A stretch of DNA of 64,000 nt from Bacteroidota bacterium (GCA_027488905.1 JAIYAT010000025.1:14139-78138); one strand, 5' to 3'. Positions 4,591 to 63,095 are shown, counted from the first letter of the stretch. Program-made: numbers and translations. The notes: generated by a model not told the origin, from the sequence alone.

Positions 4591-6117
4591 TTAGTGTTTA
4601 AAATGACGCACACCGGTGAAATACATTGCCATTTTGTGGGCATCACAATAAGCAATAGAAGCACCGTCTTTAATAGAACCTCCGGGCTGTATAACTGCAT
4701 TAATTCCTGCTTGATGAGCTATTTCTACGCAATCTGGAAAAGGGAAAAATGCGTCACTGCTCATCACTGCATCTTTCAAATCAAAGTTAAAAGTTTGTGC
4801 TTTTTGTATGGCTTGTTTTAAGGCATCAACCCTAGAGGTTTGGCCGCAACCTATTCCTAGCAATTGTTGGTTTTTGGCTAAAACAATGGTGTTTGACTTG
4901 GTATGCTTCACAATTTTGTCTGCAAACAACATGTCTGCAATTTGTTCCTTTGTGGCCCCTTCCGCAGTAACTAAGGATAAATTACCTTCTTCCAAAACCA
5001 CTAAGTTTCTGTCTTGAACCAACACGCCATTTAAGGCTGTTCTTACAGTTTGTGTTTTAGGTAAGCTTCCGGTTTGAACCAAAATAATTCTATTCTTTTT
5101 GCTTTTTAATATCTCTAAAGCCTCATCGCTGTAGGATGGAGCTAAAAGAACTTCTAAGAAGATTTTATCTATTTCTAGTGCTGTGGCTTTATCAACAGTT
5201 TGGTTTAAAGCAATGATTCCTCCAAATGCAGAAACTGAATCTCCTGCTAATGCGTCTTTCCATGCCTCTAAAATATTAGCTCTGCTTGCAACTCCGCAAG
5301 GATTATTGTGTTTAATGATGGCAACAGTAGGTTCCTTAAAATCATTAATCAATTGAAAGGCGGCATCCACATCTAATAGATTATTGTAAGATAATTCCTT
5401 GCCATGAAGCTTTGTGATTAAACTATCTAAGTTGCCGTAGAAGTAACCCTTTTGATGCGGGTTTTCTCCATACCTTAAAGTTACGCCACTTTCATGACTC
5501 ACCTTTAGTGCAGGAATGTTTTCTGTTGTATTGAAGTATTCAAAAATTGCAGAATCATAATGCGAACTTACTTGAAACGCATGGGCGGCAAAGGATTTAC
5601 GCTGAGCCAAGGTGCTGCTGCAAGCTTGTGTTTTTAGGATTTCGAGTAAATTAGGATACAAGTTTGTGTGCGACACTATTAAAGTGTACTTGAAGTTTTT
5701 TGCTGCAGCTCTAATCAATGAGATGCCTCCAATATCTATTTTCTCAATGATTTTTTGTTCTTCATTGGTTTGTTTTCTTGTTTCTTCAAAAGGATACAAA
5801 TCCACCATAACCAAATCAAAAAGCGGAATTTCAAAACTGGCAATTTCAGATAAATCGCTGGCTTCTTCTCTTCTTGCAAGTATGCCTCCGAAAACTTTTG
5901 GGTGCAAAGTTTTAACCCTTCCGCCTAAAATACTTGGATATCCAGTTAAAGTTTCCACCGCAATAACAGGTATTCCTAAGTTTTCAATAAAGGTTTGGGT
6001 ACCACCAGTAGAGTAAATTTTTACACCTGCTTTATGAAGTTCTTCTGCTATGGGTGCTAATCCGTCTTTGTAAAATACAGATATTAAGGCGTTTGAGATT
6101 TTTTGAGATGCTAACAT
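4591..6117 (-). CDS. purH: bifunctional AICAR transformylase / IMP cyclohydrolase
   Basis: Full-length PurH-like translation (MGS-like N-domain ALISVFYKDG, AICARFT domain, C-terminal VRHFKH). I start at the ATG at 6117, since the ORF-track extension to 6150 begins with TTG. Confidence 0.95.
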   Translation of the reverse strand: MLASQKISNALISVFYKDGLAPIAEELHKAGVKIYSTGGTQTFIENLGIPVIAVETLTGYPSILGGRVKTLHPKVFGGILARREEASDLSEIASFEIPLFDLVMVDLYPFEETRKQTNEEQKIIEKIDIGGISLIRAAAKNFKYTLIVSHTNLYPNLLEILKTQACSSTLAQRKSFAAHAFQVSSHYDSAIFEYFNTTENIPALKVSHESGVTLRYGENPHQKGYFYGNLDSLITKLHGKELSYNNLLDVDAAFQLINDFKEPTVAIIKHNNPCGVASRANILEAWKDALAGDSVSAFGGIIALNQTVDKATALEIDKIFLEVLLAPSYSDEALEILKSKKNRIILVQTGSLPKTQTVRTALNGVLVQDRNLVVLEEGNLSLVTAEGATKEQIADMLFADKIVKHTKSNTIVLAKNQQLLGIGCGQTSRVDALKQAIQKAQTFNFDLKDAVMSSDAFFPFPDCVEIAHQAGINAVIQPGGSIKDGASIAYCDAHKMAMYFTGVRHFKH

Positions 6118-6168
6118 GCCGTTTAATTTTGAGGGCACAAAAGTAAGCAAACATTAAGACAATGCAGT

Positions 6169-6747
6169 TTATTCTAGCATTTTATCTAATACTTTTTCAA
6201 TCTCAGCTGGAACATGTTTTTGTTCCAAAGTATGCACCTTTTCTGCAATTTCATTTGCGCTATCTGCCTCCGATATTTCAAAAGTAAATTGTGCAATGAT
6301 TTCTCCTTCGTCAAATGCTTCATTTACCCAATGAATACTTATGCCACTGTTTGTTTCTCCTGCTCGTTTTACAGCCTCATGAACATGCATGCCATACATG
6401 CCTTTGCCCCCAAATTTTGGAAGCAAAGCAGGATGTAGGTTTAAAATTTTGTTAGGAAAAGCATTTACTATAAAGGGTGGAATTTTCCATAAAAAGCCTA
6501 GTAAGCAAATTAGGCTAGGTTCAAACCGAGATATAACTGGTAAAATTACTGCTGGGTTGTTAAAGTCGGCCCGATTTACCAAAATAACTGGTATCCCTAA
6601 TTCTTTCATTTTTTCAATGACACCTGCATTGGGATTATTACAAATTAACCCAGTAATTTTTACCTTGGGATTTTTTTTAAAATATTGGCAAATATTTACG
6701 GCATTGCTTCCGCTGCCACTGGCAAATAAGAGCAGATTTTTACTCAT
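6169..6747 (-). CDS. purN: phosphoribosylglycinamide formyltransferase
   Basis: 192 aa with SGSGSN and HPALLPKFGG(K)GMYG motifs typical of GAR transformylase. Adjacent to purH. Confidence 0.93.
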   Translation of the reverse strand: MSKNLLLFASGSGSNAVNICQYFKKNPKVKITGLICNNPNAGVIEKMKELGIPVILVNRADFNNPAVILPVISRFEPSLICLLGFLWKIPPFIVNAFPNKILNLHPALLPKFGGKGMYGMHVHEAVKRAGETNSGISIHWVNEAFDEGEIIAQFTFEISEADSANEIAEKVHTLEQKHVPAEIEKVLDKMLE

Positions 6748-8252: not shown

Positions 8253-8332
8253 GCCTTTCAAACAGATTTTCAAACTTAACAGAATTGCATGGCCAATCCA
8301 ACAGGATAATATTACTTTACTATTTCATAAAC

Positions 8333-8815
8333 TCATTTTTGTAGCAATAGCATTTTTAGGGCTGTTTCTGCAGCTTCAATACCTTTGTTACCATGCTTTC
8401 CTCCAGCTCTATCAATAGCCTGTTGCTGGTTTTGTGTGGTTAATACGCCAAAGATGACTGGCTTGTTGGTTTGTAATCCCACTTGCATGATACCATTGGC
8501 GCAGGCCTCACATATAAAATCGAAATGCCTAGTTTCACCTTGAATCACGCAGCCAATTGCAATTACTGCGTGAATGTTTTTTTGCTCAGCCATCCATTTG
8601 CTGGCCAGCGGTAATTCAAAGCTTCCGGGTACGGTTTGAACCAAAACCTGATCCGCAGGTACGCCTTTTTGAATTAAAAATGTAACCGCAGCCTCGCTCA
8701 TAGCAAAAGTAACTTCTGGGTTCCATTCGGATACTACCAGGCCAATGTTAAGGCTTTGGAAAAATTCATTGGATTCGAGAGAGGTTTGCGATAGGTTTTT
8801 ATTAGCAGTAGACAT
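8333..8815 (-). CDS. ribH: 6,7-dimethyl-8-ribityllumazine synthase
   Basis: 160 aa with lumazine synthase hallmarks (VPGSFELP, IAIGCVIQGETRHFDFI). Confidence 0.95.
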   Translation of the reverse strand: MSTANKNLSQTSLESNEFFQSLNIGLVVSEWNPEVTFAMSEAAVTFLIQKGVPADQVLVQTVPGSFELPLASKWMAEQKNIHAVIAIGCVIQGETRHFDFICEACANGIMQVGLQTNKPVIFGVLTTQNQQQAIDRAGGKHGNKGIEAAETALKMLLLQK

Positions 8816-10670: not shown

Positions 10671-11771
10671 ATGCATTTAGAATCTCTTTATATTCAGCAG
10701 TTTAAGAACTATGAGGCTTTGCAGATACAATTTGCACAGGGATTAAATTGTTTTACAGGCAGCAATGGAGCCGGCAAGACAAATATTTTGGATGCCATTC
10801 ATTATTTGTCTTTTACCAAAAGTTATTTTAATGCAATCGATCAGTTTCAGGCTTTTTTAGGGGGACATTATTTTGTAATTGAATCGGAGTGTAACCAAGG
10901 TAATGTGCAAGAAAAGGTTAGAATTGTTTACCAAAAAGGCAATGGAAAAACACTCTTGGTAAATGGTAATGAGGTACAGAAATTCTCAGAACACATTGGT
11001 TCAATTCCCTTGGTGATGATTGCTCCAGGCGATATTTCTTTGATTCAAGAAGGGTCCGAAGAACGGAGAAAATTTTTGGATCAAGTAATTTCTCAATATG
11101 ATAAGTTATACTTAAATGCATTAATTTCTTACAATCGGGTGCTCGACCAGCGCAATAAAATGCTGAAGGATTTTAAATTTCAGGGAGGTTTTAATCGCTC
11201 CTTACTAGAAACCTATAATGATCAGTTGGTTCAAGCCGGAAACTATATTTTTACCAAAAGAGCAGCTTTTATAGAAAAGGTTCTACCCGTATTTTTAGGT
11301 CATTATAGCTGGATAAGTGGTCCAACTGAAAAGGTTGGAATAGTTTATGAATCTGACTTGTCAAGAACACCGTTTGATATTTTATTGGATCAAACCGAAT
11401 CTGCAGATTTAGATTTAATGCGCACAACAAGAGGAATTCACCGAGATGATTTAAACTTCACCTTAGCGCATAATCCTTTGAAAAAATTTGGCTCACAAGG
11501 GCAGCAAAAAAGTTTCTTAATAGCCTTAAAGCTAGCACAATTCGATTACCTCACAGAGGTTAAGGGTAAAAAACCATTGTTACTTTTGGATGATATTTTT
11601 GAAAAGTTGGACCAGCAACGCTTATCGAGGTTATTTGCGCAGATGGGGGAGGGTAAATTTGGGCAAGTTTTTTTAACCGATACTCAACAGGAGCGTGTCA
11701 AGGCAATGTGCTTAAACAATGCCATCGATGCTAAATTTTTTGAGATTGAAAGTGGTCAATTGCTTCGTTGA
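10671..11771 (+). CDS. recF: DNA replication and repair protein RecF
   Basis: 366 aa with Walker A GSNGAGKTN, SMC-like signature SQGQQKS and Walker B LLLLDDIF. Confidence 0.95.
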   Translation: MHLESLYIQQFKNYEALQIQFAQGLNCFTGSNGAGKTNILDAIHYLSFTKSYFNAIDQFQAFLGGHYFVIESECNQGNVQEKVRIVYQKGNGKTLLVNGNEVQKFSEHIGSIPLVMIAPGDISLIQEGSEERRKFLDQVISQYDKLYLNALISYNRVLDQRNKMLKDFKFQGGFNRSLLETYNDQLVQAGNYIFTKRAAFIEKVLPVFLGHYSWISGPTEKVGIVYESDLSRTPFDILLDQTESADLDLMRTTRGIHRDDLNFTLAHNPLKKFGSQGQQKSFLIALKLAQFDYLTEVKGKKPLLLLDDIFEKLDQQRLSRLFAQMGEGKFGQVFLTDTQQERVKAMCLNNAIDAKFFEIESGQLLR

Positions 11772-12338: not shown

Positions 12339-12348
12339 TCTGTTTTCG

Positions 12349-12422
12349 TCGGGGTGGCAGGATTCGAACCTACGACCTCCACATCCCAAATGTGGCGCGA
12401 TACCAGGCTACGCTACACCCCG
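12349..12422 (-). tRNA. tRNA-Pro (anticodon UGG)
   Basis: Manual cloverleaf: CGGGGTG acceptor, anticodon arm CCACA-TTTGGGA-TGTGG, T arm GTAGG-TTCGAAT-CCTGC, discriminator A. CCA is not encoded. Confidence 0.92.
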
Positions 12423-18866: not shown

Positions 18867-19942
18867 GCGTTAAATACGCAGGTTTCCACGGTAAGGCCTG
18901 GTCCAAAACCTGCAGCAAAAACTTTTTGCTGTGGGTTATAATCTGGCTGTTGTAATATTTTGTTGAGTACATGTAATAAAGTGGTACTGCTAAGGTTGCC
19001 CACTTCTTTTAGTACTTCATAAGAATGTCTCAAAGGGGTTTCGGTTTGAACCGAATTCGACTGAAGTATATTTGAAATGCCATCCACTATTTTTCTTCCA
19101 CCAGGGTGAATGGCCCAATGCTGAATATCCTTAAAATCACAAGAAAGATGTTGCAAGGCATCTTGAATGATAGTTCCAAGGCCTTCTTCAATCAACTGTG
19201 GAATATAAGCGCTTAGGGTCATTAAGAAGCCATCTTCATGAATATGCCAAGCCATGTCTGCTTTGCCTTTGTAAATTACTTTGGAATAAAAGTTGCTAAA
19301 TTTAAAATAAGCTTGTTCGGGAGGTTTAGTACTTATGATACATGCTGCTGCGCCATCTCCAAACAGGAGATTAGCAGCCATGATATCCGTGCTTTTTTGT
19401 TGATTGAAATGCAAGGTGCAAAGCTCCACCGATACCACCAAAACCCTTGAATCTTCGCTTGAGTTGCAAATGGCGTCTGCCATTTTAAAGGCATGGAACA
19501 AAGCATAACAACCCATAAAATTTACAGATGTTCGAGGCGTGTTGGGAGATAGGTTCAATGCTTGCAATAGCATTAAATCTAATCCAGGAGCTGCCATTCC
19601 GGTGCAAGAAACTGTAATTAAATGGGTAATTTGTTGTTCTTGAATTGCCCTTTTAGAAGCGGCGGCTGCAAGGTTTGGCGCATGTTCAAAATAGGTAGCC
19701 ATTCTTTTAGAAATAGGAACCTCTTTACCCAACTCAAAAAATCCTTCATCGGCATTTTGGTTCAAGCCAAAATCTTTTAACACACTATACCGGTGCTGTA
19801 TACCGCTTCGCCCATACATTAAACTAAGTTTTTGTGCCTCTTTTGGTTCAAACCGATAACAACTGAGCATGTAAGAAAGCAATTGCTCTTGCGAGTATTT
19901 ATTTTCTGGAAAGGCAATGCCAATATTAGAAAGGTAGCTCAT
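18863..19942 (-). CDS. type III polyketide synthase (chalcone/stilbene synthase superfamily)
   Basis: 359 aa with a Cys-His-Asn triad context: VSCTGMAAPGLD, WAIHPGGRKIVD, EVGNLSSTTLLHVL. Confidence 0.88.
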   Translation of the reverse strand: MSYLSNIGIAFPENKYSQEQLLSYMLSCYRFEPKEAQKLSLMYGRSGIQHRYSVLKDFGLNQNADEGFFELGKEVPISKRMATYFEHAPNLAAAASKRAIQEQQITHLITVSCTGMAAPGLDLMLLQALNLSPNTPRTSVNFMGCYALFHAFKMADAICNSSEDSRVLVVSVELCTLHFNQQKSTDIMAANLLFGDGAAACIISTKPPEQAYFKFSNFYSKVIYKGKADMAWHIHEDGFLMTLSAYIPQLIEEGLGTIIQDALQHLSCDFKDIQHWAIHPGGRKIVDGISNILQSNSVQTETPLRHSYEVLKEVGNLSSTTLLHVLNKILQQPDYNPQQKVFAAGFGPGLTVETCVFNA

Positions 19943-25787: not shown

Positions 25788-26579
25788 ATGAAGCGAAGTC
25801 TTCTTTTGATTAGTTTTTTGAGTCTTGCTTTTATAAGCAAGACTCAATCTTTAAAAGAGTTTACCTACCTAAAAGACAGGTATCACCTAGAAAGCTATTT
25901 TAATTTTTCTGCCATGCTGGCAAATATTGATAATCCTGCTGCGCCAAACAATCGGCAAGCGCATAAACAAAGTGTGCTATTTATCGACTTATACTACCTC
26001 AAACCTAATTTTAATAAGGGTGGTTTGAACCGACGCAGCGACTATAAATTATTACCAGATATTTTTTGGCTATTCAAACAAATTACCGAAAAGGATGAAA
26101 GCAAATTGAATGCTAGTCAGGGTAGTTCCATTTCTGGTGGAATAATTGGTTGGCATCAATGGACCTGGAATCTCACTGCAAAACCACAGCAATGCATAAG
26201 CATAGGATTAACTATTAGTGACTATTTTATTGGTTCAATTTATTTAGATAGCACTCAGTCGAAAATAGTTTTACACGAACCTCAAGGTTGGCAAATAGGA
26301 GCTGGGCCGGTGATAGGAATTTCTCAAAGGCTTTCTAATTCATTTATTTTAATTGGTTCAACCGCCTATGTTCCTTCCTTTTTAAAGCCAGTAAGTGTTA
26401 GTTATGCAAAAGAAGATGAGAACTATCCTAAACCGCATTTTTTGCATTTGAATTTAACACTTATGAGTAAGTGGGGTTTATTTGCAGAAGGTCAACTTGT
26501 ACAACTCATCAATAATGGGAACTTGCCTAATACTACTAGACGTCTCGATCTGAAACTTGGGTTTGCATTTGTACTATAA
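25788..26579 (+). CDS. secreted protein of unknown function
   Basis: 263 aa with signal peptide MKRSLLLISFLSLAFISKTQS. Starts 5 nt after the preceding gene. Confidence 0.6.
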   Translation: MKRSLLLISFLSLAFISKTQSLKEFTYLKDRYHLESYFNFSAMLANIDNPAAPNNRQAHKQSVLFIDLYYLKPNFNKGGLNRRSDYKLLPDIFWLFKQITEKDESKLNASQGSSISGGIIGWHQWTWNLTAKPQQCISIGLTISDYFIGSIYLDSTQSKIVLHEPQGWQIGAGPVIGISQRLSNSFILIGSTAYVPSFLKPVSVSYAKEDENYPKPHFLHLNLTLMSKWGLFAEGQLVQLINNGNLPNTTRRLDLKLGFAFVL

Positions 26580-37424: not shown

Positions 37425-37434
37425 GGTTTGAACC
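37425..37434 (+). repeat. intergenic copy of the over-represented word GGTTTGAACC
   Basis: Exact 10-mer, 6 nt after the stop codon at 37416-37418. Confidence 0.95.
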
Positions 37435-41336: not shown

Positions 41337-41346
41337 GGTTCAAACC
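41337..41346 (-). repeat. intergenic copy of the over-represented word GGTTTGAACC (reads GGTTCAAACC on the plus strand)
   Basis: Exact 10-mer, 12 nt after the stop at 41324. Confidence 0.95.
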
Positions 41347-43045: not shown

Positions 43046-43055
43046 GGTTTGAACC
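43046..43055 (+). repeat. intergenic copy of the over-represented word GGTTTGAACC
   Basis: Exact 10-mer with flank TTTC. Lies between the scoB start (43037) and the stop of the T9SS cargo gene (43105). Confidence 0.95.
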
Positions 43056-46137: not shown

Positions 46138-48309
46138 ATGAATACCCCTTTTTTTTATTTTGACAGAAAAATACTTCTAGTGCTTTTCCTCCTTTTGTGG
46201 GGAGAATCACTCTTTTCACAAAGTAAAACAATTCTAGAAATTAAAGGTAAGCTTGCCAGTCGAAATACCCATGATACCTCAACTGTAAATTTATTAAACG
46301 AATTGGCCTTTGAATTTAGAAATTCGTATCCTGATAGTACCATTTTTTATGCAAATCAGTCTCTTGCAATTTCCAATGAGTTAAATTATAAAATAGGGCA
46401 AGCAAATGCTTATAAACAATTAGCAATCGGAAGCTTTTATCAATCTAATGGAAAACTAGCAAAGTTATATAATCGTTCGGCACTTAAATTATTCAAGGAA
46501 TCTAATGATAAAAAGGGAGAGGCCGCAGTTCTAAATAATTTAGGGATGATTTTTCACAATGAAGGTGATTTTGAAAAAGCACTTTTTCATTACAATCAAA
46601 GTTTGCAAATCCGTAAGGCCATTTATGATGCTAAAGGAATGGGGGATAGCTACAATAATATAGGAAACATCTATTTAGACAAAGGGAATTTCAAAGAAGC
46701 CATTGAGCATTATTTTGAAGCACTTCAAATTAGAGAAGACAATAAAGATTCGGTTAGTATTGCAAATAGCTATGGAAGTATTGCTGGCGTTTACTTTTTG
46801 TTAGGAAAATATGAGGACGCCGAAAAAAATGCCAAGCGTGCTTTGACCATTCAACAGCTAATTGGTGAGCGAATTGGGTCAATACAAAGTAACATTGAAT
46901 TAGGAGGGATTTATCATCATAGGAAGCAGTACGATTCTGCTATTCAATATTTTAATTCTGCCTACCTTTTGGCAAAAGAAGCTGGAGATCAAGCAGACGA
47001 AATAGTTTGTTTGATAGATTTTGGGGAGGTATACAATGATAAAGGAATGCCTGATAGTGCTCTTTATTTTTTCGAATTAGCCATGCCCAAATGCATCAAG
47101 TTTGAAGACAAAATTGGTGTTGCATTTTGTGATATTGGTATTGCAAAGGCTAAATTGTTAAAGGGAGATTTACAAGGTAGTTTGCATCATTCTAGGCTGG
47201 GTTACGATGCTGCTTTTAAATTGCATAATAAAGTGCAAATTTTAGAAGCAAGTTCCCAGCTTGCTAAGGTTTTACAAAAATTAAGTAAGTTTCAGGAAGC
47301 AAATTTTTATTTGAATCAATCTATTATTTATAAGGATAGTTTGCAAATTGAAGAAAATGCAACAAGAACACACGAGTTAGAATTTAATTATCTTTTAGAG
47401 AAAAAACAGAATGAAATTACGCTATTAGAAAAAGATAATTCAATTCAAATTGCCAAAAGTAGGTTTCAGTATTCTATAACCATAGGATTACTTGTTATGA
47501 TTATGTTTTTAGCAATTTCTGTTTATATAATACAAAGATCAAGGGCGAATGAAATACAGGCTAAAGATTTGGTTACCCAACAAAAGCATGCAATTGAAAG
47601 GCAAGCCAAAGATTTAGAAGAACTTAATATCTATAAAAATAAAATTTTTTCCATCCTTTCCCATGATATTCGTAATCCTATTTCCTCTTTAAATCAAATT
47701 GTTGAGTTAATCAATGAAGACGTATTGACAATTAATGATTTAAACCACTTAAAGGATAGGCTTCATGGTCAATTGAAATCTATCAATATCCTGCTAGACA
47801 ATGTTTTAAATTGGAGTAAGAATCAGTTAGAAGGTGAGTTACTACCTAATAAAAAGGAAACAAATCTTACCCTTCTAGTGAATCAAAATATTACTTTATT
47901 TGAAGAGTTTTCGCAACAAAAGCAGCTTGTTCTTAACAATATGGTGCCTGATGATTTTATGGTTTGGGTTGACCCAAATCATTTGGATTTGGCTGTTAGA
48001 AATATTTTGTTTAATGCAATTAAATTTTCTTTCCAGAATGGAACCATAGAAATCAAAATAGAAAAAAAAGAAGGCGAAGTGTTTATCTCAATTTCCGATA
48101 ATGGGAAAGGTATGGATGACTTGGAGTTGGAATCACTTTTTTCATATAATAAGCAACCTGGAATTTATGGAACAAATGGGGAGCGAGGAGCAGGGATTGG
48201 CCTAATTTTGACAAAAGAATTTGTTAGTAAAAATGACGGAAAAATATTGGTTCAATCCAAAGTAAATGAAGGTTCTACCTTTACCTTGGTGTTTCCTGAT
48301 TTAGTATAA
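46138..48309 (+). CDS. TPR-repeat sensor histidine kinase (HisKA plus HATPase_c)
   Basis: 723 aa with the same architecture as 21650..23665: signal sequence, TPR units, coiled coil, TM, H-box FSILSHDIRNPI, and DNGKGM / GAGIGL. Confidence 0.9.
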   Translation: MNTPFFYFDRKILLVLFLLLWGESLFSQSKTILEIKGKLASRNTHDTSTVNLLNELAFEFRNSYPDSTIFYANQSLAISNELNYKIGQANAYKQLAIGSFYQSNGKLAKLYNRSALKLFKESNDKKGEAAVLNNLGMIFHNEGDFEKALFHYNQSLQIRKAIYDAKGMGDSYNNIGNIYLDKGNFKEAIEHYFEALQIREDNKDSVSIANSYGSIAGVYFLLGKYEDAEKNAKRALTIQQLIGERIGSIQSNIELGGIYHHRKQYDSAIQYFNSAYLLAKEAGDQADEIVCLIDFGEVYNDKGMPDSALYFFELAMPKCIKFEDKIGVAFCDIGIAKAKLLKGDLQGSLHHSRLGYDAAFKLHNKVQILEASSQLAKVLQKLSKFQEANFYLNQSIIYKDSLQIEENATRTHELEFNYLLEKKQNEITLLEKDNSIQIAKSRFQYSITIGLLVMIMFLAISVYIIQRSRANEIQAKDLVTQQKHAIERQAKDLEELNIYKNKIFSILSHDIRNPISSLNQIVELINEDVLTINDLNHLKDRLHGQLKSINILLDNVLNWSKNQLEGELLPNKKETNLTLLVNQNITLFEEFSQQKQLVLNNMVPDDFMVWVDPNHLDLAVRNILFNAIKFSFQNGTIEIKIEKKEGEVFISISDNGKGMDDLELESLFSYNKQPGIYGTNGERGAGIGLILTKEFVSKNDGKILVQSKVNEGSTFTLVFPDLV

Positions 48310-48321: not shown

Positions 48322-48331
48322 GGTTTGAACC
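48322..48331 (+). repeat. intergenic copy of the over-represented word GGTTTGAACC
   Basis: Exact 10-mer with flank TTTTTC, 12 nt after the kinase stop at 48309. Confidence 0.95.
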
Positions 48332-49494: not shown

Positions 49495-50397
49495 ATGTCT
49501 ATAGAAGTTATTGGTTTAAACAAATTATATGGGTCCCAAAAAGCGCTAGATAATGTCAGCTTTTCGGTTCAACCCGGAGAAATATTAGGATTTTTGGGGC
49601 CTAATGGCGCTGGAAAATCTACTACCATGAAAATTCTTACAGGATACCTACCTCAAACCTCTGGCATAGCTAAGGTCTGTGGGTATGATGTTAATGCCAA
49701 CAGCCTCGAAGTGAGAAAACATATTGGTTACCTTCCAGAACTTAATCCGCTCTATGCAGATATGTATATCAAAGAATACCTATTGTTTACTGCAGGTATG
49801 ATGGGGATAAAAGGAGCTCAAGCAACTACCGCCGTAGAAAAAATGATTCTTAAAACAGGTATTAGTCCTGAGCGCAAAAAGAAAATAGCACAACTTTCAA
49901 AAGGATATAAACAAAGAGTGGGACTTGCTGCAGCCCTTTTGCATGATCCAGATGTTTTAATTTTGGATGAACCTACCACCGGCTTAGACCCAAATCAAGT
50001 TGTTGAAATTAGAAACCTTATCAAGGAAATTGGGAAAAACAAAACAGTGATTTTTTCTACCCATATCATGCAAGAGGTAGAAGCACTCTGCAATAGAGTG
50101 GTAATCATTAACAAGGGCAAAATTGTGGCAGATAATGATATTGCAGGCTTACAGCAAATGATGCGCAAGCAATTTGTATTGCAATTAGAAATAAAAGGTG
50201 ATTGCACAAGCGCAGATTTATTAGGTATTTCAGGTGTCATCAGTGCAAACGCAAATGGCGCTTTTTGGACTATTAAGTCGAGCCAAGATGTGAGAGAGGC
50301 ATTGGCAATTATGTCTCAATCCAAACAATGGATTATACTTTCTATGCAATTAGAAGAGCAGTCGTTGGAAGATGTATTTCAAACTTTAACAAAGTAA
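49495..50397 (+). CDS. gldA: gliding-motility-associated ABC transporter, ATP-binding subunit
   Basis: 300 aa with Walker A GPNGAGKST, signature LSKGYKQR and Walker B ILDEPT. Followed by gldF and gldG homologues. Confidence 0.88.
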   Translation: MSIEVIGLNKLYGSQKALDNVSFSVQPGEILGFLGPNGAGKSTTMKILTGYLPQTSGIAKVCGYDVNANSLEVRKHIGYLPELNPLYADMYIKEYLLFTAGMMGIKGAQATTAVEKMILKTGISPERKKKIAQLSKGYKQRVGLAAALLHDPDVLILDEPTTGLDPNQVVEIRNLIKEIGKNKTVIFSTHIMQEVEALCNRVVIINKGKIVADNDIAGLQQMMRKQFVLQLEIKGDCTSADLLGISGVISANANGAFWTIKSSQDVREALAIMSQSKQWIILSMQLEEQSLEDVFQTLTK

Positions 50398-50400
50398 GCT

Positions 50401-52847: not shown

Positions 52848-53863
52848 AAAAAAGCACGTTTATTTTACTCCTAGTTGTTGTGGTGCTTGGTATAAGTACC
52901 TTTCTACTTATGCGCAAACCTTGGTCTAATTCCCAGCATGAAGCAGCTGCTTTTGCTGTTAAAGACACAGCAAAAGTTACACGTGTTTTTTTAGCCGATA
53001 AGGTTGGAAAAACGTTAACATTAGAGAGAAACACAGACAACACTTGGACTGCCAATAAAAATATTCTGGTTGATCATACCAAGATAAACTTATTACTAAC
53101 AACCCTGCATGATTTGCAAGTGAAAATTCCTGTTAGCGCGCCTATGCACAATACAGCAATGGCCATTCTTGGGAGTAAAGGTATTAAGTGCGAGATTTAC
53201 GAGGGAGAAAGGCTCTTGAAGGTGATATATATTGGTACCGAAACTCCTGAAAAAGAAGGCACATTCATGATTTTGGAAGGCGAAGATCAACCTTATATCA
53301 TTCAACAGCCTGGTTTTATTGGCTTCTTAACACCTAGATTTAGTACTGATGAGATAAAATGGCGCAGTAAGCTGATTTTTAATGTGGCGAAAAAGGACAT
53401 TCAAGAAATAACCATTCGCTACCCATCTAATGAAAGTGAATCCTTTGTTTTAAACGCAATTACTGCCCAACAAAAGGGAGTTATACAAGATAGCAAAGGC
53501 AATTTGGTTCAAACCGACACCTTAAAAACCAACTTATTATTAAATGCTTTTGAACAATTATATGCCGAAGGTTTTTATGATGAAACCGTTTTTACAAAAG
53601 CTGAAAGAGATTCTGTATTTGGCCTTAATGCTTATGTTAGTATAGACTTAAAATTAATAAATGGAGACATCCAACATTTAAGTTTATATGAAAAGTTGGT
53701 GGGAGACAAAACTAAGGATCGTTTTGATGAGGATAAAAAAGAAAGGACGATTGACCCCGAAAAGTTCTTTGCAAAAGTGGGTAATCAAAATTTAGCAGCC
53801 TCTGTGCAGGAATATGCCTTTAGAAGAATTTTGGTCAAAAAGTCTGATTTACAATTACGTTAG
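52844..53863 (+). CDS. DUF4340-like protein usually found downstream of gldG
   Basis: 339 aa with an N-terminal anchor. ATGA overlap with gldG. The family name comes from remembered synteny and is unverified. Confidence 0.6.
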   Translation: MKKSTFILLLVVVVLGISTFLLMRKPWSNSQHEAAAFAVKDTAKVTRVFLADKVGKTLTLERNTDNTWTANKNILVDHTKINLLLTTLHDLQVKIPVSAPMHNTAMAILGSKGIKCEIYEGERLLKVIYIGTETPEKEGTFMILEGEDQPYIIQQPGFIGFLTPRFSTDEIKWRSKLIFNVAKKDIQEITIRYPSNESESFVLNAITAQQKGVIQDSKGNLVQTDTLKTNLLLNAFEQLYAEGFYDETVFTKAERDSVFGLNAYVSIDLKLINGDIQHLSLYEKLVGDKTKDRFDEDKKERTIDPEKFFAKVGNQNLAASVQEYAFRRILVKKSDLQLR

Positions 53864-55196: not shown

Positions 55197-55642
55197 TTCA
55201 ATTCACAAATCTTTACTTGTTTGTTGGCTATAGCAATATAATCACCTTTAGATTTTCCAAAAATTGCCTTTGCCAAAGGTGATACATCAGAAATTATAGC
55301 AACCTTGTAGTTATTTACACTTAAATTTCCAATAGCTGCTACAATATAGCATAAGGTGGTTTCGGTTTGAACCAAAGCGCCTAATTCTCCAATATTGGAT
55401 GTCTTTTCTGGATTGACTTTTAATAATTTATGGTATTCAGTTTTTAAAACTTCAAGCTGCTTAGAAAGCATGTAGATTTCATTCTGACTCATGGCACGAG
55501 CGGTTTCATATTTATCTCCCATGCTACTCTTTTGTTCAGAATTACCGCTTTCTTGAACTTTTTTAATGGCATCTGTAAGTTCTTTCATCTTTTGTTCTTG
55601 AAAGGACTTAGCAAAATGCCAAATCTCGTTTTTGTCAATCAT
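55193..55642 (-). CDS. GreA/GreB C-terminal-domain protein with an N-terminal coiled coil
   Basis: 149 aa. The C-terminus (ISDVSPLAKAIFGKSKGDYIAI...VKICEL) resembles the GreA C-terminal domain. Confidence 0.6.
   Translation of the reverse strand: MIDKNEIWHFAKSFQEQKMKELTDAIKKVQESGNSEQKSSMGDKYETARAMSQNEIYMLSKQLEVLKTEYHKLLKVNPEKTSNIGELGALVQTETTLCYIVAAIGNLSVNNYKVAIISDVSPLAKAIFGKSKGDYIAIANKQVKICELN
55358..55378 (+). repeat. 21-nt block GGTTTCGGTTTGAACCAAAGC, identical to 32030..32050
   Basis: Exact identity. Lies inside the unrelated GreA-like gene, where it also encodes ALVQTET. Confidence 0.95.
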
Positions 55643-55649: not shown

Positions 55650-56696
55650 CTAATCTATCCAGTCACAAATGAAGAGATTGGTATCTCTTGTACCGCCATT
55701 GTTGCGGTTACTGCTGAAGATTAGTTTAGAACCGTCTGGCGAAAACATCGGAAATGCATTAAATAAACTATTATTAGTAATTCGCTCTAAACCTGTACCG
55801 TCATCATTAATTATGTATAACTGAAAATCATACCCTTTTACACTATGATGGTTGCTGCTAAAGATAATTTTATTGCCAGAAGGATGAAAGAATGGAGCCC
55901 AATTTGCTTTTCCTAAGTTTGTAATTTGTTTTAACTCACCTCCATCAATGTTACATGTATAAAGTTCCATGTTGGTTGGAGCAACTAAGCCTTGTTTTAA
56001 AAGGTCTTTATAATCCTTTATTTCTGCCTCTGTTTTTGGTCGGCTTGCCCTAAATACCAATCGTTTGCTGTCTGGTGAAAAAAAAGCGCCACCATCATAC
56101 CCTAAACCTGTCGTAATCTGTTTTACATGGTTCCCTTCAATGTCAGAAATGTATAAATCCAAATCTCCATTGCGGGTGCTGGTAAAAACAATCATTTTGC
56201 CATCTGGACTTATAGTTGCTTCTGCATCATATCCTGAGGTATTGGTAATTTGCTTTTTGATATTGCCTTTTTCATCTGCCACAAAAATATCGAACTCAGG
56301 GTAAATCGCCCATAAGTATCTGCCTGTGCTCATTGGGTCTGGTGGGCAAGTTTGATGCTTCAGGTGGGTAGAAGCATAAATAATATCATTATTGTTTGGC
56401 ATGTAATAGCTACAAGTAGTTCTGCCTTTTCCTGTGCTAATCATCTGAGCCTTTCCGTTTGAATCTAGTATTGGTTCAGCCAAATTCATATAAAAAATTT
56501 GATCGCATTTTAACCCCCATTTTTTATTGTTACTTTGGAAGCTGATTTTATCTCCATTCGGACTAAAATACGCTTCTGCATTGTCGCCTCCAAAGGTGAT
56601 TTGTTTAATGTTTCCTAAATGTTTTTCTTCATTTTGAGCTTGGGTCAAGCCGAAAAATAAAAATAAAGCTGTAATTAATAGAGTAAGTTTTTTCAT
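55650..56696 (-). CDS. TolB-like PD40/WD40 beta-propeller protein (secreted)
   Basis: 348 aa with a signal peptide and repeated FSPDG/ISPDG/FSPDS...IVF/LVF motifs. Confidence 0.82.
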   Translation of the reverse strand: MKKLTLLITALFLFFGLTQAQNEEKHLGNIKQITFGGDNAEAYFSPNGDKISFQSNNKKWGLKCDQIFYMNLAEPILDSNGKAQMISTGKGRTTCSYYMPNNNDIIYASTHLKHQTCPPDPMSTGRYLWAIYPEFDIFVADEKGNIKKQITNTSGYDAEATISPDGKMIVFTSTRNGDLDLYISDIEGNHVKQITTGLGYDGGAFFSPDSKRLVFRASRPKTEAEIKDYKDLLKQGLVAPTNMELYTCNIDGGELKQITNLGKANWAPFFHPSGNKIIFSSNHHSVKGYDFQLYIINDDGTGLERITNNSLFNAFPMFSPDGSKLIFSSNRNNGGTRDTNLFICDWID

Positions 56697-56701: not shown

Positions 56702-57697
56702 TTATAATCTTTGAGTCTCAAATTTTGGAGCGCCTTTCACGCCTTGTTCATCATAAAAATCGATGAACCTAAGTTTGTAATAAAAGCCTTTAGTGTCTTT
56801 AATAATATAAGTATATTTTCTAACAACATCATATCGGTTCAAATCGAAATCATATCTTTTCCAATCAAATCCAATAACATCTTTTCTGTTGGTAAATTCA
56901 AATTCTTTCAGTGTTTCAGCCGTAATATTTTCAAAGCCAATGGTACTATCTTTTGCACATATAACTTTGTTTGGGTTTAGTATCACTCCGGTGACGCTGT
57001 ATGGAGTTATTGGCGACATATTGTAATACACGTGTCTATACCTAGTAAAAAGAATATCCCAATTTTCTCTATCTGGCTCTAAGTCTATTATTTTGTTGGG
57101 GTCATCAAAATTAATGTAGCTGTAGTTACGGTTTGCAATTTTGGGTACTGCATATTCATGCGCATCACTTCCGTCTAAATTAGCAAATAGAAAAGTATAA
57201 CCTGAAGGATTTACTGTTAAGAATTTCAGTTTTTTATATCTTGGATTTGCTGTTTGTCCGCGGTCTATCAAATAAACGTAACCATGACATTTGCGACTTA
57301 ATGAATCGTACCAGTCACCAAAAGCTGTGCCTTTCCATTCTCCTGCGGGGTTGTCATATTCCCATTCAACGCCAGCTAGAGTTGGAATTTCGCTAAAGTC
57401 TTTTGTGCCTGTATTGGCAACTTGAACCTCTTTTCCGCCATTTATTTTTACTATATATCCATTTGGGTTGCAATCAAATCCCAGGTCCCAGGCCATAAAA
57501 TCATTTGCTTTTATTGCGCCATCTCTTAGGGTAAAAAATAACTGTGTGGTATAATCTCTGCCAAGTCTAACTGTATAATTTTTTACATCACCTTTGGAAG
57601 TTGGCAGAATAAGTGCTTCTTCTTTTTTCTCGCAAGCACTAAGTAAAATTACTAAGTTAATAGCTATAAGGCTCGTATTGAATTTAAAGTTTTTCAA
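56702..57697 (-). CDS. HmuY-like lipoprotein
   Basis: 331 aa with lipobox LVILLSAC and WDLGF and WDILFTRY motifs of the kind seen in HmuY-family proteins. Immediately downstream of a TonB-dependent receptor. Confidence 0.6.
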   Translation of the reverse strand: MKNFKFNTSLIAINLVILLSACEKKEEALILPTSKGDVKNYTVRLGRDYTTQLFFTLRDGAIKANDFMAWDLGFDCNPNGYIVKINGGKEVQVANTGTKDFSEIPTLAGVEWEYDNPAGEWKGTAFGDWYDSLSRKCHGYVYLIDRGQTANPRYKKLKFLTVNPSGYTFLFANLDGSDAHEYAVPKIANRNYSYINFDDPNKIIDLEPDRENWDILFTRYRHVYYNMSPITPYSVTGVILNPNKVICAKDSTIGFENITAETLKEFEFTNRKDVIGFDWKRYDFDLNRYDVVRKYTYIIKDTKGFYYKLRFIDFYDEQGVKGAPKFETQRL

Positions 57698-59982: not shown

Positions 59983-61218
59983 TTAACGAGCAATTATAAT
60001 TCTGCTTACAGCGCTGTATCCAGCACTTTCAAGATTTACAATGTAAACTCCTTCATTAAGATTTTGAACAGATAATTGTAATTCTTGCATGCCTTTCACA
60101 ACATTAAAGTTTTGTTCAGCTACTAATCGGCCGTTTAAATCTAAAACACGTAAAGTGGCTGAGTTTAATTCTTGGTTATCTAAAACAACTTGCAGGTAAT
60201 CGCTTGTTGGGTTAGGATAAACAGCTAATTTAGCTATGGTTTTTTGGGTTTGATCCAACAAGCCTACCGTAAATAATTTTTGCTTGTTGAAATATGATTT
60301 TCCAGAACCAGAGCCACTAAAGCCCGTAAACCATACTTTCCAAATATCACCATTTTTGGCCTTTACAAAATAAACTGTAGAATCTGCAATTTTCCATTGA
60401 AAGGTGTTATTGTCAAATGATTTCCAATCAGCACCAATAGTCGAGATGCTTCTTGCAAATGGGTGCGAATTATAACTGGTATAATTTTCTTTGTCAACAC
60501 CTGATACCTTGCTTGCCACAACACCTCTGTTATTTAAAACACCTGTTGAAGGATAATATACTTGTTGAGAAGCTTGTAAAGAATTGTATCTTGTAAATAC
60601 GAAGTCCCAAGTTGAATCTACTGGTTCTCTGTATTCTACTGTGCCAGTAAGCAAGTTAACGTATCCAAAATTATTTGAGCGAATATTGGTATGCAGAATG
60701 GTAAGTGTGGTATCTAAAGTTGGGGTTCCAATTCTGATTTTCCAATTACCATAATCTTTTTCAATTACCCAAAGTTTAATCCAATTATTACCTTGTTTAA
60801 TAAAAAATAATGAATCTCCTGTAACTTTATGGGTAATGGTATTGTAGCTTCCCCAGCTGCAATAAGGGCTATCAAAAGTTCTATTAAATGCACCAATATC
60901 CCAGCTGGTGTCTGTGTTAAATACCTCGGTAGTTGCGCTGCTGCTGTCTAAGGTTTTCCATGCACTTGTGTCTTTATTGGTTAAAAAACCTCTGGTTGCA
61001 TTGGTTGAATTGATAAAAATACCATCGCTTATAAATCCGCTTCTAAAAGCCAAGTGCCAATTATTGTTGGGGGCTTCAGCTACCTTGCCATTTTTTAAAC
61101 TGTAAAAAATATCTTTACCATAGCCAGGGCCCATGGTAGCAGAATCACTTACAATAGTTTGAGCGAGATTTATTTGGGTAGAAAAGGCTAATGAAAGAAG
61201 AAGTATTAGTTTTTTCAT
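59983..61218 (-). CDS. HmuY-like protein carrying a T9SS C-terminal sorting domain
   Basis: Signal peptide MKKLILLLSLAFSTQINLAQ from the ATG at 61218 (an upstream ATG exists at 61260). NNWHLAF and WDFVFTRY motifs. C-terminal LAVYPNPTSDYLQV...GVYIVNL matches the T9SS CTD pattern. Confidence 0.65.
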   Translation of the reverse strand: MKKLILLLSLAFSTQINLAQTIVSDSATMGPGYGKDIFYSLKNGKVAEAPNNNWHLAFRSGFISDGIFINSTNATRGFLTNKDTSAWKTLDSSSATTEVFNTDTSWDIGAFNRTFDSPYCSWGSYNTITHKVTGDSLFFIKQGNNWIKLWVIEKDYGNWKIRIGTPTLDTTLTILHTNIRSNNFGYVNLLTGTVEYREPVDSTWDFVFTRYNSLQASQQVYYPSTGVLNNRGVVASKVSGVDKENYTSYNSHPFARSISTIGADWKSFDNNTFQWKIADSTVYFVKAKNGDIWKVWFTGFSGSGSGKSYFNKQKLFTVGLLDQTQKTIAKLAVYPNPTSDYLQVVLDNQELNSATLRVLDLNGRLVAEQNFNVVKGMQELQLSVQNLNEGVYIVNLESAGYSAVSRIIIAR

Positions 61219-61437
61219 TTTTAATTTTTTGTGTGTGCAAAGAAATATCCTTCCTTTCATATGAACACCTAACTTTTATCATGTTTTTGGTTTGTGACAT
61301 TATTTTGACTTTTCAGTATTTTCAAGGTTTTACAAGGTTTTTACGGTAGGGTTCAAACAATATTATTGATTTGTTATAGCGATAAATTTGTTAAACCAAA
61401 AGGATTAAGTAGTAATATTGCCATTAAATATTCTTAT

Positions 61438-62634
61438 ATGAAATCTGTTTACATTGTAGATGCTGTGCGCACGCCCATTGGAAAGTTTGGTGGTTCTTTA
61501 AGTACAATTCGCCCAGACGATTTAGCGGCTTTGGTAATAAAAGCCTTAGTGGAAAGAAATCCAGGCATAGACGTGAATCAAATAGAGGATGTAATTTTGG
61601 GTGCTGCTAATCAGGCAGGTGAAGATAACAGAGATGTTGCCCGAATGGCTTTATTATTAGCTGGGTTGCCCACTAGTATTGGTGGTAATACTGTAAATAG
61701 ACTTTGTGCCAGTGGTTTGCAAAGTATCATGGATGCTTCTCGGGCCTTGGAGGTTGGTGATGGCGAAATTTATATTGCTGGGGGCGTAGAAAGTATGACA
61801 CGTGCTCCATTTGTAATGGCAAAGGCAGATACCGCCTTTAGCAGAACGCCAGAAATTTATGATACTACCATAGGCTGGCGCTTCACTAACAAAGCTCTTT
61901 CTGCATTGTATCATCCATATAGCATGGGCGAAACTGCAGAGAATGTGGCAGAACAATGGAAGGTAAGCAGAGAAGACCAAGATGCCTTTGCGTATCAATC
62001 TCAATTGAAATATCAAGCTGCCCATGATGCAGGTAAGTTTGCGGATGAAATAATTCCAGTTGCCATTCCGCAAAAAAAAGGTGATCCTAAACTATTTGAT
62101 AAAGACGAACACCCAAGGTTGAGTTCCTTAGAGGAATTGGCCAAGTTAAAACCCGCTTTTCGCAAAGACGGTTCTGTTACTGCGGGCAATGCCAGTGGCA
62201 TCAATGACGGCGCGGCAGCTTTGTTTTTAGCAAGTGAGGATGCTGTAAAACAATTCAACTTAAATCCAATTGCTAGAGTTGCGGGTAGAGGCATTGCAGG
62301 TGTTGATCCTTCTGTGATGGGGATTGGTCCAGTTCCAGCTACGCAAAAGGCTTTAAAAAGAGCAGGTATTGGTGTAAATGATTTGGGTTTAGTTGAATTA
62401 AATGAAGCTTTTGCTTCTCAAGGTTTGGCTTGTATGCGCGACCTTGGACTTAACCCAGCTATCGTAAATGTGAATGGTGGAGCAATTGCCCTTGGACATC
62501 CATTAGGTGCAAGTGGGTCTAGAATTTCTACAACCCTCTTGCACGAAATGAAAAGAAGAAATGTAAAATATGGCTTAGCAACCATGTGTATTGGCGTTGG
62601 CCAAGGTGCAGCCATTGTGTATGAGCTTTGTTAG
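61438..62634 (+). CDS. acetyl-CoA C-acyltransferase (thiolase)
   Basis: [19 protein letters not shown], active-site NRLCASGLQ, and C-terminal [14 protein letters not shown] and CIGVGQG. Confidence 0.94.
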
Positions 62635-63095
62635 TTGGTTTCGGGTTGAACCAAGTTTAAAATAAAGTTTTTGGGTATGGTGAATTCGGGCATGCTTTGC
62701 GTCAAATTCGTGAAGCTCGTTTTTGGTTCAGCCCAATACTTTTGATTTACAACAAACTTAAATTCTACTTTTGATTTGCCTTTAAAATCAGAAAGTTTCA
62801 TGCGGTATTCATAAACCTCTCCAACTTTTGTCATTTGATAGTTTTTTGCCGTTGTCATCCAACTATTAAATTCTCCGCACAAAGTAACTTCCTTAACCTT
62901 TACGTTATTTTTACTGCGCCACATGCCATAGGAGGTAATAAAATCGCTATGTTCGTTTGGGTTAAAGACAAAAACAACTTCGTCTTTCTCTAGGCGATAA
63001 CCGCCAATTTTTTGTGTAGCAGAAGTGTCTGTAGATTGTGCTTTTAATCCAATTAAACTTCCAAGAAGGAATAAGGTGCTCAGTATTTTTTTCAT
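62631..63095 (-). CDS. secreted protein with a CBM48/AMPK-beta-like (E-set) domain
   Basis: 154 aa with a signal peptide. [10 protein letters not shown]...YEYRMKL...[13 protein letters not shown] resembles the glycogen-binding-domain consensus. Confidence 0.5.

Follow-up and report, generated by a model that had tools for sequence, protein, structure and literature searches.

A lineage-specific, hyper-abundant sequence word in freshwater Chitinophagaceae-like Bacteroidota and its possible role as a DNA uptake signal

In this study, we identified a hyper-abundant, non-polar sequence word that is specific to a lineage of uncultured freshwater Chitinophagaceae-like Bacteroidota. It was characterized in one stretch of 64 kb (the window, by which we mean the whole of the DNA analyzed) and then in related and unrelated genome regions. 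The best fit to the sequence patterns is an uptake-signal-type word similar to the DUS of Neisseriaceae and the USS of Pasteurellaceae, a reading that we put forward tentatively and with less than even confidence. No report of a comparable word for Bacteroidota was found in the searchable literature, in line with an earlier sequence-only reading of this DNA, which knew of none.

The 10-mer GGTTTGAACC occurs in 13 exact copies on the two strands of the window, at every coordinate listed by the sequence-only reading (Table 1). Dinucleotide shuffles gave 0.11 expected copies (maximum 1) and Markov models of order 0 to 4 predicted 0.08-0.46, in agreement with the ~0.1 first calculated from a zero-order model; the GC content, estimated by eye at ~37%, was measured at 36.0%. 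The higher-order Markov and codon-shuffle counts proposed as checks were run on the window, and both nulls were exceeded. Shuffling synonymous codons with all proteins and spacers fixed left 5.2 +/- 0.9 copies (maximum 8), four of which are the fixed intergenic ones, so that ~1.2 copies are expected in coding DNA versus 9 observed. The five one-substitution copies, GGGTTGAACC, were all confirmed, as were the positions of the 9/10 matches at 4001, 28164, 32295, 56836, and 61350, but near-copies had been undercounted: 39 copies lie within one mismatch of GGTTTGAACC in the 64 kb, versus 3.8 expected.

The 10-mer noted first is, however, only the center of the functional unit, a ~14-20 nt asymmetric motif whose core, TTGA-n-CC-n-A, holds the critical bases. 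The full form of the word is CGG(T/G)TTGAACCAAA, with TTGAACC at its core, and the extended consensus is 5'-(ggttt)CGG(T/G)TTGAACC(A/n)Aa-3', or tttCGG(T/G)TTGAACC(A/n)Aa in shorter form. This consensus is graded and asymmetric, tolerant at positions 1-3 and 8, and the flanks of the 13 exact copies carry the bias already noted from the sequence (position -1 is C in 10/13 and position +1 is A in 8/13). In the 64 kb, TTGAACCNA was found 50 times versus 3.65 expected, and a position-weight matrix (PWM) gave 34 matches at a cut-off of >=14 bits versus 0.8 in Markov-3 simulations; when sites matched on both strands are counted a single time, 32 distinct sites are left. With the longer motif as the unit, the true number of sites is therefore ~32-50 per 64 kb, or one per ~1.3-2 kb, in coding and non-coding DNA alike. 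The core is quasi-palindromic (GGTT-TG-AACC), and one variant, GGTTCGAACC, is a perfect palindrome. The word itself is not, given its TG center, its C(-1)/A(+1) flanks, and a 5' GGTTT extension with no 3' mirror. No periodicity of flanking AT tracts was seen around the copies.

Table 1 Sites of the word in the 64-kb window, with their state in relatives (L005 to L010)
Form	Position	Strand	Context	PWM (bits)	Relatives
variant GTTTTGAACC	1795..1804	-	PBP2 gene	15.2	kept in L005, L007
variant GTCTTGAACCAA	5011..5020	+	purH, antisense	14.1	core kept in L006, L008
exact copy	5071..5080	+	purH, antisense, LVQT	26.4	kept in L005-L007; same site empty in L008, L010
exact copy	6518..6527	-	purN, sense, RFEP		kept in L005, L007, L008
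exact copy	8633..8642	+	ribH, antisense, LVQT		GGG variant at this site in L006, L007; motif-free in L008, L009
variant GGCTTGAACC	11228..11237	-	recF	19.1	
variant GGTTTGATCC	11387..11396	-	recF	15.9	kept in L006
exact copy	19043..19052	+	type III PKS-like gene, antisense	29.5	
variant GGCTTGAACC	19759..19768	-	type III PKS-like gene, sense	22.0	
exact copy	19845..19854	-	type III PKS-like gene, sense, RFEP		
GGGTTGAACC	23199..23208	+	TPR histidine kinase gene, sense	29.7	
exact copy	26022..26031	+	sense, GLNR		
variant AGTTTGAACC	28164..28173	-		15.6	
GGGTTGAACC	28252..28261	+	antisense	28.4	
weak variant CGTCTGAACC	28900..28909	-		14.7	
GGGTTGAACC	31843..31852	-	sense, GLNQ	27.5	
exact copy, full 20-nt consensus GTTTCGGTTTGAACCAAAGC	32036..32045	+	20-nt identity to copy at 55359	32.6	
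exact copy	37425..37434	+	intergenic; stop codon 7 nt before		
exact copy	41337..41346	-	intergenic		
exact copy	43046..43055	+	intergenic		
variant GGTTTGATCC	43210..43219	+		22.6	
variant GGGTTGACCC	47966..47975	+	within 24-nt palindrome	PWM site	
exact copy	48322..48331	+	intergenic; stop codon 13 nt before		
GGGTTGAACC	49566..49575	-	gldA-like ABC ATPase gene, antisense		
exact copy	53506..53515	-	antisense, LVQT	30.0	
exact copy, closest to consensus	55364..55373	+		34.1	
variant GGCTTGACCC	56642..56651	-		18.9	
variant GATTTGAACC	56836..56845	-		PWM site	
variant GGTTTGATCC	60247..60256	+		PWM site	
GGGTTGAACC	62643..62652	+	convergent-gene junction	PWM site	
variant GGGCTGAACC	62725..62734	-		16.0	
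variant GGTTTGACCC	63400..63409	-		PWM site	

The sequence-only reading placed the constraint on the DNA and not on a peptide motif, and this is upheld by the spread of copies over frames, spacers, and unrelated genes and by the synonymous codons preferentially kept between relatives. Copies occupy five of the six frame/orientation classes, the empty class being the only frame that contains a TGA stop, and 4-5 of 18 are non-coding, though non-coding DNA makes up 6% of the window. The gene identities purH (4591-6150), purN (6169-6747), and ribH (8333-8815) and the peptides LVQT, RFEP, and GLNR were confirmed, with GLNQ in addition. Where amino acids are identical to those of the relatives L006 and L007, codons are kept in 79-83% of cases within the motif versus 54-57% elsewhere (p=0.005 and 0.011). 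Amino-acid identity to L010, the most distant relative, is 0.54 at motif codons versus 0.74 elsewhere (p=0.006), and these positions are not inherently variable, as identity between L008 and L010 is 0.79 there versus 0.76 elsewhere. Amino acids thus change so as to fit copies of the word.

It is hard to believe that the word is a by-product of a recurrent peptide motif, of codon bias, or of dispersed mobile-element remnants (MITE, REP, or in-frame RPE-like insertions). One frame, read L/S-V-Q-T/P, does hold 9 of the 14 genic copies, as a peptide motif would predict, but the copies in four further frame/orientation classes and in spacers, the unrelated host genes, and the excess over the synonymous-codon shuffle all speak against it. 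As for mobile elements, a MITE, REP, or RPE element is contradicted by the orthologous alignments, which at motif sites contain substitutions only and no indel, and by the similarity among copies, which stops beyond ~20-24 nt. The two results named beforehand as fatal to a genome-wide signal, a longer dispersed repeat and an enrichment confined to the window, were not found, and the word is spread lineage-wide.

The same ungapped alignments show that copies were created via point substitution at already similar sequences and not by insertion. Once created, their synonymous positions are kept, and the word shifts into "dialects" among sub-lineages. L006/L007 retain the word at 5 of 6 orthologous sites, versus a baseline of 0.12, and L008, L009, and L010 have gained their own copies independently at other positions, so that sharing at non-orthologous positions, suggested as a check, is indeed observed. 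The more distant the relative, the lower the density over the same 10 genes (0.5 down to 0.1 per kb), and a dialect, CGAACCnA, reaches 0.73/kb in L010 versus 0.05/kb in the window. The T/C difference between the dialects falls on a CpG/TpG position. Related freshwater MAGs and unrelated metagenome genome regions bear the word: L064 has 11 PWM matches of >=14 bits in 12 kb, both strands counted, and L104, L051, L020, and L102 have several copies each. The perfect palindrome GGTTCGAACC was found in L064 and L010. Multi-copy metagenome loci gave no blastn match to the window except a 91-nt tRNA-like match of L115, and the word was not found in 1.5 Mb of control DNA.

The 32 distinct sites of >=14 bits are split 17+:15-, and the GC skew is consistent with a single replichore, without a switch in the window. 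Copies of TTGAACCNA are scattered evenly in a Poisson-like manner (CV of spacing 0.91). Pairs of sites 60-88 nt from each other were also more frequent than expected, which the uptake model does not predict. Uptake signals would be expected to be rarer in newly acquired or mobile DNA than in core genes; in the window, the low-GC stretch at 43.3-47.9 kb has zero strong sites (P ~0.08), and no mobile element was identifiable. Next to an uptake signal, polar signals had been proposed from the sequence, namely a Chi-like recombination hotspot acting with AddAB/RecBCD or an FtsK/KOPS-like polar word. Chi sites are 5-8 nt long and few-fold enriched, and KOPS words are >85% skewed. Like Chi and KOPS/AIMS, the word is over-represented on the chromosome and lies inside genes, core genes included, and GGKTTGAACC alone lies 12+:6- on the probable leading strand; however, TTGAACCNA has the opposite tendency (18+:32-, p=0.065), and co-orientation with replication at the level of Chi (>=75%) or KOPS (>=85%) was not seen in this one 64-kb window. 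Those words are also short, modestly enriched, and strongly co-oriented, whereas the present one is 14-20 nt long, ~100-fold enriched, and unoriented. We consider a polar role very improbable, and of the functions first proposed, the uptake signal fits these sequence data best.

To our knowledge, uptake signals occur in just two bacterial families, both proteobacterial, which gives the uptake reading a low prior; their origin, and their reader in Pasteurellaceae, are debated. The word has several of the features expected of them: a 9-12-mer that is hyper-abundant above composition at about one per 1-2 kb; no replication polarity, with copies spread over spacers and several frames of coding DNA, as seen in the 64-kb window; and presence in relatives with stable orthologous sites and sub-clade dialects. 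In such a model, a natural-transformation DNA receptor would preferentially bind double-stranded DNA bearing the word, word-bearing conspecific fragments would be imported more often via ComEC and DprA and recombined more often via RecA, and this biased replacement would make the word dense in all places where protein function permits it. No competence gene (ComEC, DprA, ComF, or a DNA receptor) lies within the 64-kb window; ComEC is kept in nearly all Bacteroidetes (PMC6299819). It may be, although we would not bet on it at even odds, that this is the first DNA uptake signal outside Proteobacteria, an independently evolved self-recognition word of a Chitinophagaceae-like clade. Its receptor would then be unrelated to the neisserial ComP, and its dialects, from CGAACCnA to cGGKTTGAACCnA, would have diversified as lineages split.

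The main rival, which the sequence-only reading had not considered, fits almost as well. It is a HIP1-like chromosomal word, kept without any DNA uptake by a sequence-specific chromosomal protein (nucleoid architecture) or by a methylation- or repair-linked mutational ratchet. Words of the HIP1 type are characteristically spaced with a period of 10-90 kb and have cognate orphan methyltransferases. For HIP1 (GCGATCGC) and similar cyanobacterial octamers, which do not serve in uptake, all the genomic signatures that we observed have been reported as well: 15-300-fold over-representation, conservation of sites and single-mismatch variants within and between ORFs, and variant words that replace it in some lineages (PMC5861425). 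In our data too, both sites and variants with one mismatch persist from genome to genome, and the quasi-palindromic core, with its perfect form in L064 and L010, the CpG/TpG position of the dialect difference, and the surplus of closely spaced site pairs would suit this reading. However, every HIP1 variant reported is, like HIP1 itself, a perfect palindromic octamer tied to orphan methyltransferases, whereas the word here is longer, clearly asymmetric at its flanks, center, and 5' extension, and has no known methyltransferase link, and the window contains no methyltransferase or Vsr-like gene. On balance, we regard a HIP1-like word as somewhat unlikely.

A quasi-palindromic core is also what a dimeric protein that binds or modifies DNA might recognize, and the word could be a self-marking or binding array, the favored target of an abundant system such as a nucleoid-associated protein or phosphorothioation. 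The phosphorothioation cores GAAC/GTTC and CCA occur inside the word. High density, the even scatter, and a clade-specific dialect, which would follow a co-evolving protein, agree with this; yet the likeness to phosphorothioation cores is just 3-4 nt and expected by chance, no such system is encoded in the window, and a ~100-fold enrichment of a 10-16-mer in coding sequence at a cost in amino acids has not been reported as the effect of any known nucleoid-associated protein or modification system. We find an array of this kind improbable.

From a biological perspective, the word is a DNA-level force able to outweigh amino-acid conservation, whether its function is that of an uptake signal or HIP1-like. 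As an uptake signal, it would add an independent third case, from a new phylum, and so show that self-biased transformation evolves repeatedly; abundant lake bacteria would be flagged as naturally transformable, and the receptor could be sought by comparison, among genes whose occurrence follows the TTGAACC and CGAACC dialects. As a HIP1-like word, it would carry the unsolved HIP1 puzzle past cyanobacteria. In both cases, it can serve in practice as a marker when genomes of this clade are binned or foreign DNA in them is to be detected.

Finally, the candidate uptake signal can be compared with systems of self-DNA preference. Riemerella, also of the Bacteroidota, is naturally competent and prefers its own DNA, with no signal identified and a machinery that is partly unknown (PMC7965970; PMC8459023). 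For such a preference, some signal of discrimination must exist; k-mers searched in both Riemerella and Flavobacterium yielded poly-A words only, without a specific motif (PMC7965970). Riemerella shares the phylum but not the family of the word's clade, and nothing ties its system to the word. DUS (ATGCCGTCTGAA and dialects) are unrelated in sequence and belong to a different phylum; neither the type IV pilus route nor the minor-pilin receptor ComP is established in Bacteroidota, and intergenic copies of the present word are single, none being seen in the window as inverted-pair terminators of the kind known from Neisseria. In other respects the two are alike, with an asymmetric 10-12 nt core, weaker flanks, and about one copy per kb in coding and non-coding DNA; DUS are also reported to occur family-wide with lineage dialects (PMC3630211). 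Both DUS and USS have no general genome orientation bias but favor one orientation within genes (PMC2346458), and similarly the word has no overall bias, yet 9 antisense versus 5 sense copies in genes. USS (AAGTGCGGT and ACAAGCGGT types) differ from the word in sequence and in the flanking AT-tract periodicity, which was not seen around it. Like the word, they combine a strong core with graded flanks, occur in low-GC genomes, originate by point mutation, lie in several reading frames, and are stable at orthologous sites among relatives, and they come as two types in sister clades, comparable to TTGAACC and CGAACC here.

The 10-mer GGTTTGAACC forms the middle of a longer motif, as represented by CGGTTTGAACCAAA. 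All 13 copies that the sequence-only reading had counted on both strands were confirmed at every coordinate, against 0.11 in dinucleotide-preserving shuffles of the window (shuffle maximum 1), and the near-copies it had named were all recovered among the 39 copies found with at most one mismatch (3.8 expected). The window has a GC content of 36.0%, and under Markov models of order 0 to 4 the expectation is 0.08-0.46 copies. A codon-aware null, in which synonymous codons were permuted within each gene and spacers were kept fixed (200 shuffles), gave 5.2 +/- 0.9 copies and never more than 8; as four of these are the fixed intergenic ones, about 1.2 coding copies are expected, whereas 9 are observed. 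The excess within the window is therefore not a product of codon usage, a concern raised from the sequence; since the word has also shaped the proteins, this null errs on the cautious side.

The most over-represented 9-mer of the window, TTGAACCAA, has 30 copies against 0.8-4 expected, and TTGAACCNA has 50 against 3.65. Alignment of all 59 TTGAACC copies gives the consensus tttCGG(T/G)-TTGAACC-(A/n)-A-a, with the A two bases 3' of TTGAACC present in 50 of them. One-off variants concentrate at positions 1-3 and 8 of the 10-mer, and TTGA and CC are almost never hit. With a 26-nt weight matrix derived from the 18 GG(T/G)TTGAACC copies and Markov-3 simulations as background, the window contains 34 hits of at least 14 bits (32 distinct sites, 0.8 simulated) and 53 of at least 10 bits (47 when merged, 5.8 simulated), a density of one site per 1.3-2 kb. 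A repeat finder independently returned the motif as the largest repeat family, in which similarity stops after 20-24 nt, so that the copies are not embedded in a longer dispersed repeat, the second concern; those at 32031 and 55359 are identical across GTTTCGGTTTGAACCAAAGC. The consensus is quasi-palindromic (GGTT-TG-AACC), yet its centre and flanks are clearly asymmetric. Separately, the Neisseria uptake word contained in one weak variant (see table) is almost certainly a coincidence, and the copies of another frequent word of the window, AAAAGCAAATT, are intragenic, with none at promoters.

The genes that carry the motif are unrelated and include those for PBP2, MreB/C, purH, purN, ribH, recF, histidine kinases, gldA/F/G-like ABC components, a TonB-dependent receptor, and a type III polyketide synthase (PKS)-like gene with three strong copies. 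Five of the six frame/orientation classes are used, as are spacers, which bears out the earlier view that the constraint acts on the DNA and not on a protein motif. No copy falls in the sixth class, where the word would be read with a TGA, and the most frequent reading is antisense, L-V-Q-T-E. Non-coding DNA, 6% of the window, holds 4-5 of the 18 GG(T/G)TTGAACC copies, each directly beyond a gene end; no hairpin, terminator or inverted-pair context was found for the intergenic copies of the window. Codon alignments with orthologues are ungapped and show substitutions at every motif site, so the copies are not insertions, and these alignments tell against both mobile elements and peptide motifs. 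The Bacteroidota promoter reading (TAnnTTTG) fits the copy at 37425 alone, the consensus having TCGG upstream. A resemblance to the tRNA T-arm was also rejected, as its loop would need one more base and the copies have arisen through substitutions. An Rfam search of the window returned two tRNAs and nothing else; the CGAACC matches at 12365 and 15948, two of seven such matches in the window, are the T-arms of true tRNA genes. As a side observation, the PKS-like gene and the adjacent UbiA gene may together make up a small pathway for a lipid or pigment.

The 32 distinct sites of at least 14 bits are split 17+:15- between the strands, GGNTTGANCC is split 17+:13-, and TTGAACCNA 18+:32- (p=0.065). 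GC skew is positive at plus-strand genes and slightly negative at minus-strand genes, with no lasting reversal; we infer that the window is a single replichore, with replication direction taken from skew alone. The gaps separating sites vary with a CV of 0.91, near random placement. Among the candidates put forward by the sequence-only reading, the uptake sequence is favoured, whereas Chi-like and FtsK/KOPS-like words were set aside, since orientation, length and degree of enrichment are all unfitting for such polar signals. Six pairs of neighbouring sites are spaced by 60-88 nt, where random placement would give 1.3 (post hoc P ~0.001), and none is closer than 60 nt in the window; all gaps below 100 nt taken together give P 0.09. 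Comparable spacings occur in the metagenome locus L040 (62), in locus L109 (73) and in the related locus L008 (58). In a post hoc partition, TTGAACCAA copies lacking the GG(T/G) prefix are split 3+:16- and GG(T/G)TTGAACC copies 12+:6-, their union being 15+:22-.

Features of the window and of two comparison loci, with positions in each
Feature	Position	Strand	Remarks
ORFs of 149-559 aa without Pfam family	6747-8273 (508 aa), 30812-32368, 35739-37418, 37501-39039, 55193-55642		
tRNA-Pro(TGG)	12348-12422	-	Rfam
tRNA-Ser(GCT)	15929-16020	-	Rfam
Type III polyketide synthase-like gene, then UbiA prenyltransferase gene	18863-20819		Chal_sti_synt/FAE1 domains in the first gene
Weak motif variant	28900-28911	-	Reads GCCGTCTGAACC, which includes the 10-mer Neisseria DUS GCCGTCTGAA
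T9SS-tail protein	43105-45594		
Near-perfect palindrome ATGGTTTGGGTTGACCCAAATCAT, 24 nt, around a motif variant	47959-47982		In a TPR histidine kinase gene; rated terminator-like by a terminator scan
gldA/gldF/gldG-like ABC transporter operon and DUF4340 gene	49495-53863		ABC_tran, ABC2_membrane, ABC_transp_aux
Motif pairs 60-88 nt apart	5011/5071, 19759/19845, 23131/23199, 28164/28252, 48249/48322, 62643/62725	mixed	
(A)ACAATACCA(A), examples	L010: 3401, 5853, 8972, 11767, 14069, 14951, 16157		
Five repeats of ~50-120 nt containing tttttGCCACCAAGGcgcgaaggcaccaag	L064: 7671-7935	both	Sixth tttttGCCACCAAGGcgcgaaggcaccaag at 5787

This DNA is recorded in metagenome assemblies only. The closest is a lake MAG (CAMDHZ010000001.1, deposited under the label "Chitinophaga pinensis"), with 97% identity over the unannotated 508-aa protein, followed by further freshwater MAGs at 67-80%; this protein, kept at 67-97% identity across all related MAGs, is the measure used for the related loci L005 to L010, the last of these being the most distant. 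The T9SS sorting domain and the gliding-type ABC genes fit (gliding) Bacteroidota. The 10-mer is present in every relative down to ~75% protein identity. Many copies are shared at orthologous sites with L005-L007, and five of six are kept in L006/L007 against a baseline of 0.12 for any 10-mer. At these positions L008 and L010 have non-motif sequence of equal length, and elsewhere L008, L009 and L010 have acquired copies of their own. Measured over the same ten genes, density declines from 0.5/kb in the window and L005 through 0.4, 0.3 and 0.26 to 0.1/kb in L010.

The word leaves its mark at two levels, synonymous codons and protein sequence, in comparisons that draw on the 64-kb window and ~150 kb of related fragments, several of them on 3-11 sites. 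For amino acids shared with L006 or L007, which are phylogenetically non-independent, the codon is identical at 79-83% of motif codons versus 54-57% elsewhere (p=0.005, 0.011). Compared with L010, amino-acid identity is 0.54 in motif codons and 0.74 elsewhere (p=0.006), and no intrinsic variability of these positions was found between L008 and L010 (0.79 versus 0.76 elsewhere, n=24 codons). Motif positions are thus not intrinsically variable and have nevertheless diverged from L010, indicating that acquisition of the word changed proteins.

The word also has dialects. CGAACCnA reaches 0.73/kb in L010 versus 0.05/kb in the window, and TGAACCnA is likewise at 0.73/kb in L010. The sister word CGAACC(A/T)A has 13 copies in the 17.8 kb of L010 and also occurs in L006, L008 and the metagenome locus L064; CGAACCAA is the top-ranked 8-mer of L010 (8 copies versus 0.77 expected). 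The T/C difference between CGAACC and the TTGAACC of the window lies at a CpG/TpG position. As L010 carries both forms, the clade-wide core is YGAACC(A/T)A, its 5' half differing between lineages. Another word, (A)ACAATACCA(A), bears no relation to the motif and is over-represented in L010 and L008, both distant relatives, where it occurs in at least four frame/orientation classes; CAATACCA has 12 copies in the 17.8 kb of L010 (0.67/kb) versus 0.11/kb in the window.

The word is not confined to the window, the third concern. An exact 14-mer scan of metagenome contigs yielded mostly chance singletons among the matches listed, together with at least about a dozen low-GC loci with several copies. 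L064 has 11 hits of at least 14 bits in 12 kb, both strands counted, and L104, L051, L020, L102, L124, L066 and L040 have two or more copies each. By blastn, the multi-copy loci do not match the window, except for a 91-nt tRNA-like stretch of L115. In the other 92 loci (531 kb), a negative control among the matches listed, the seed is the sole site. The same scan of IMG/VR gave 23 extra sites in 120 viral loci (990 kb), ~0.02/kb versus ~0.5/kb in the window; no word-dense viral contig emerged, and there is thus no phage lead. L064 also contains a cluster of repeats that looks like an intergenic repeat array, a type absent from the window.

Taken together, these patterns call for a process whose target is double-stranded DNA sequence itself, chromosome- and clade-wide, and which is indifferent to the direction of transcription and replication. 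Its strength has to suffice for fixing amino-acid changes and for holding synonymous sites afterwards, and its specificity has to drift between lineages. Uptake signals of the Neisseriaceae (DUS) and Pasteurellaceae (USS) build up through biased uptake and recombination. It is possible, as a tentative reading of sequence patterns, that the word is a signal of this type: a receptor would bind word-bearing DNA, this DNA would be imported, and recombination would drive the spread of the word. This reading is favoured by the asymmetric, graded architecture of 14-20 nt and by the biology of the phylum, which keeps ComEC almost universally (PMC6299819) and includes species that are naturally competent with a preference for self DNA, in which no signal has been identified and part of the machinery is unknown (PMC7965970, PMC8459023). 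In the literature searched, the word itself appeared only in primers and miRNA sequences, and nothing on uptake-type or DUS/USS-like signals in Bacteroidota was found beyond poly-A k-mers of Riemerella; no prior description was thus found there, in line with the sequence-only reading, which knew of no such word in the phylum.

A word like HIP1, the cyanobacterial iterated palindrome, is the second known kind that fits and is somewhat less likely than an uptake signal: HIP1-type words match the motif in how their sites and variants are conserved, yet each is a perfect palindrome, with a function that is unknown (PMC5861425), whereas the word here is asymmetric. DUS and USS are unbiased in orientation genome-wide and prefer one orientation within genes (PMC2346458). 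Judged on its sequence pattern, the word has the genomic features that define the DUS/USS type and would work like these uptake signals, and we describe it as such without filing it as a proven member of the family.
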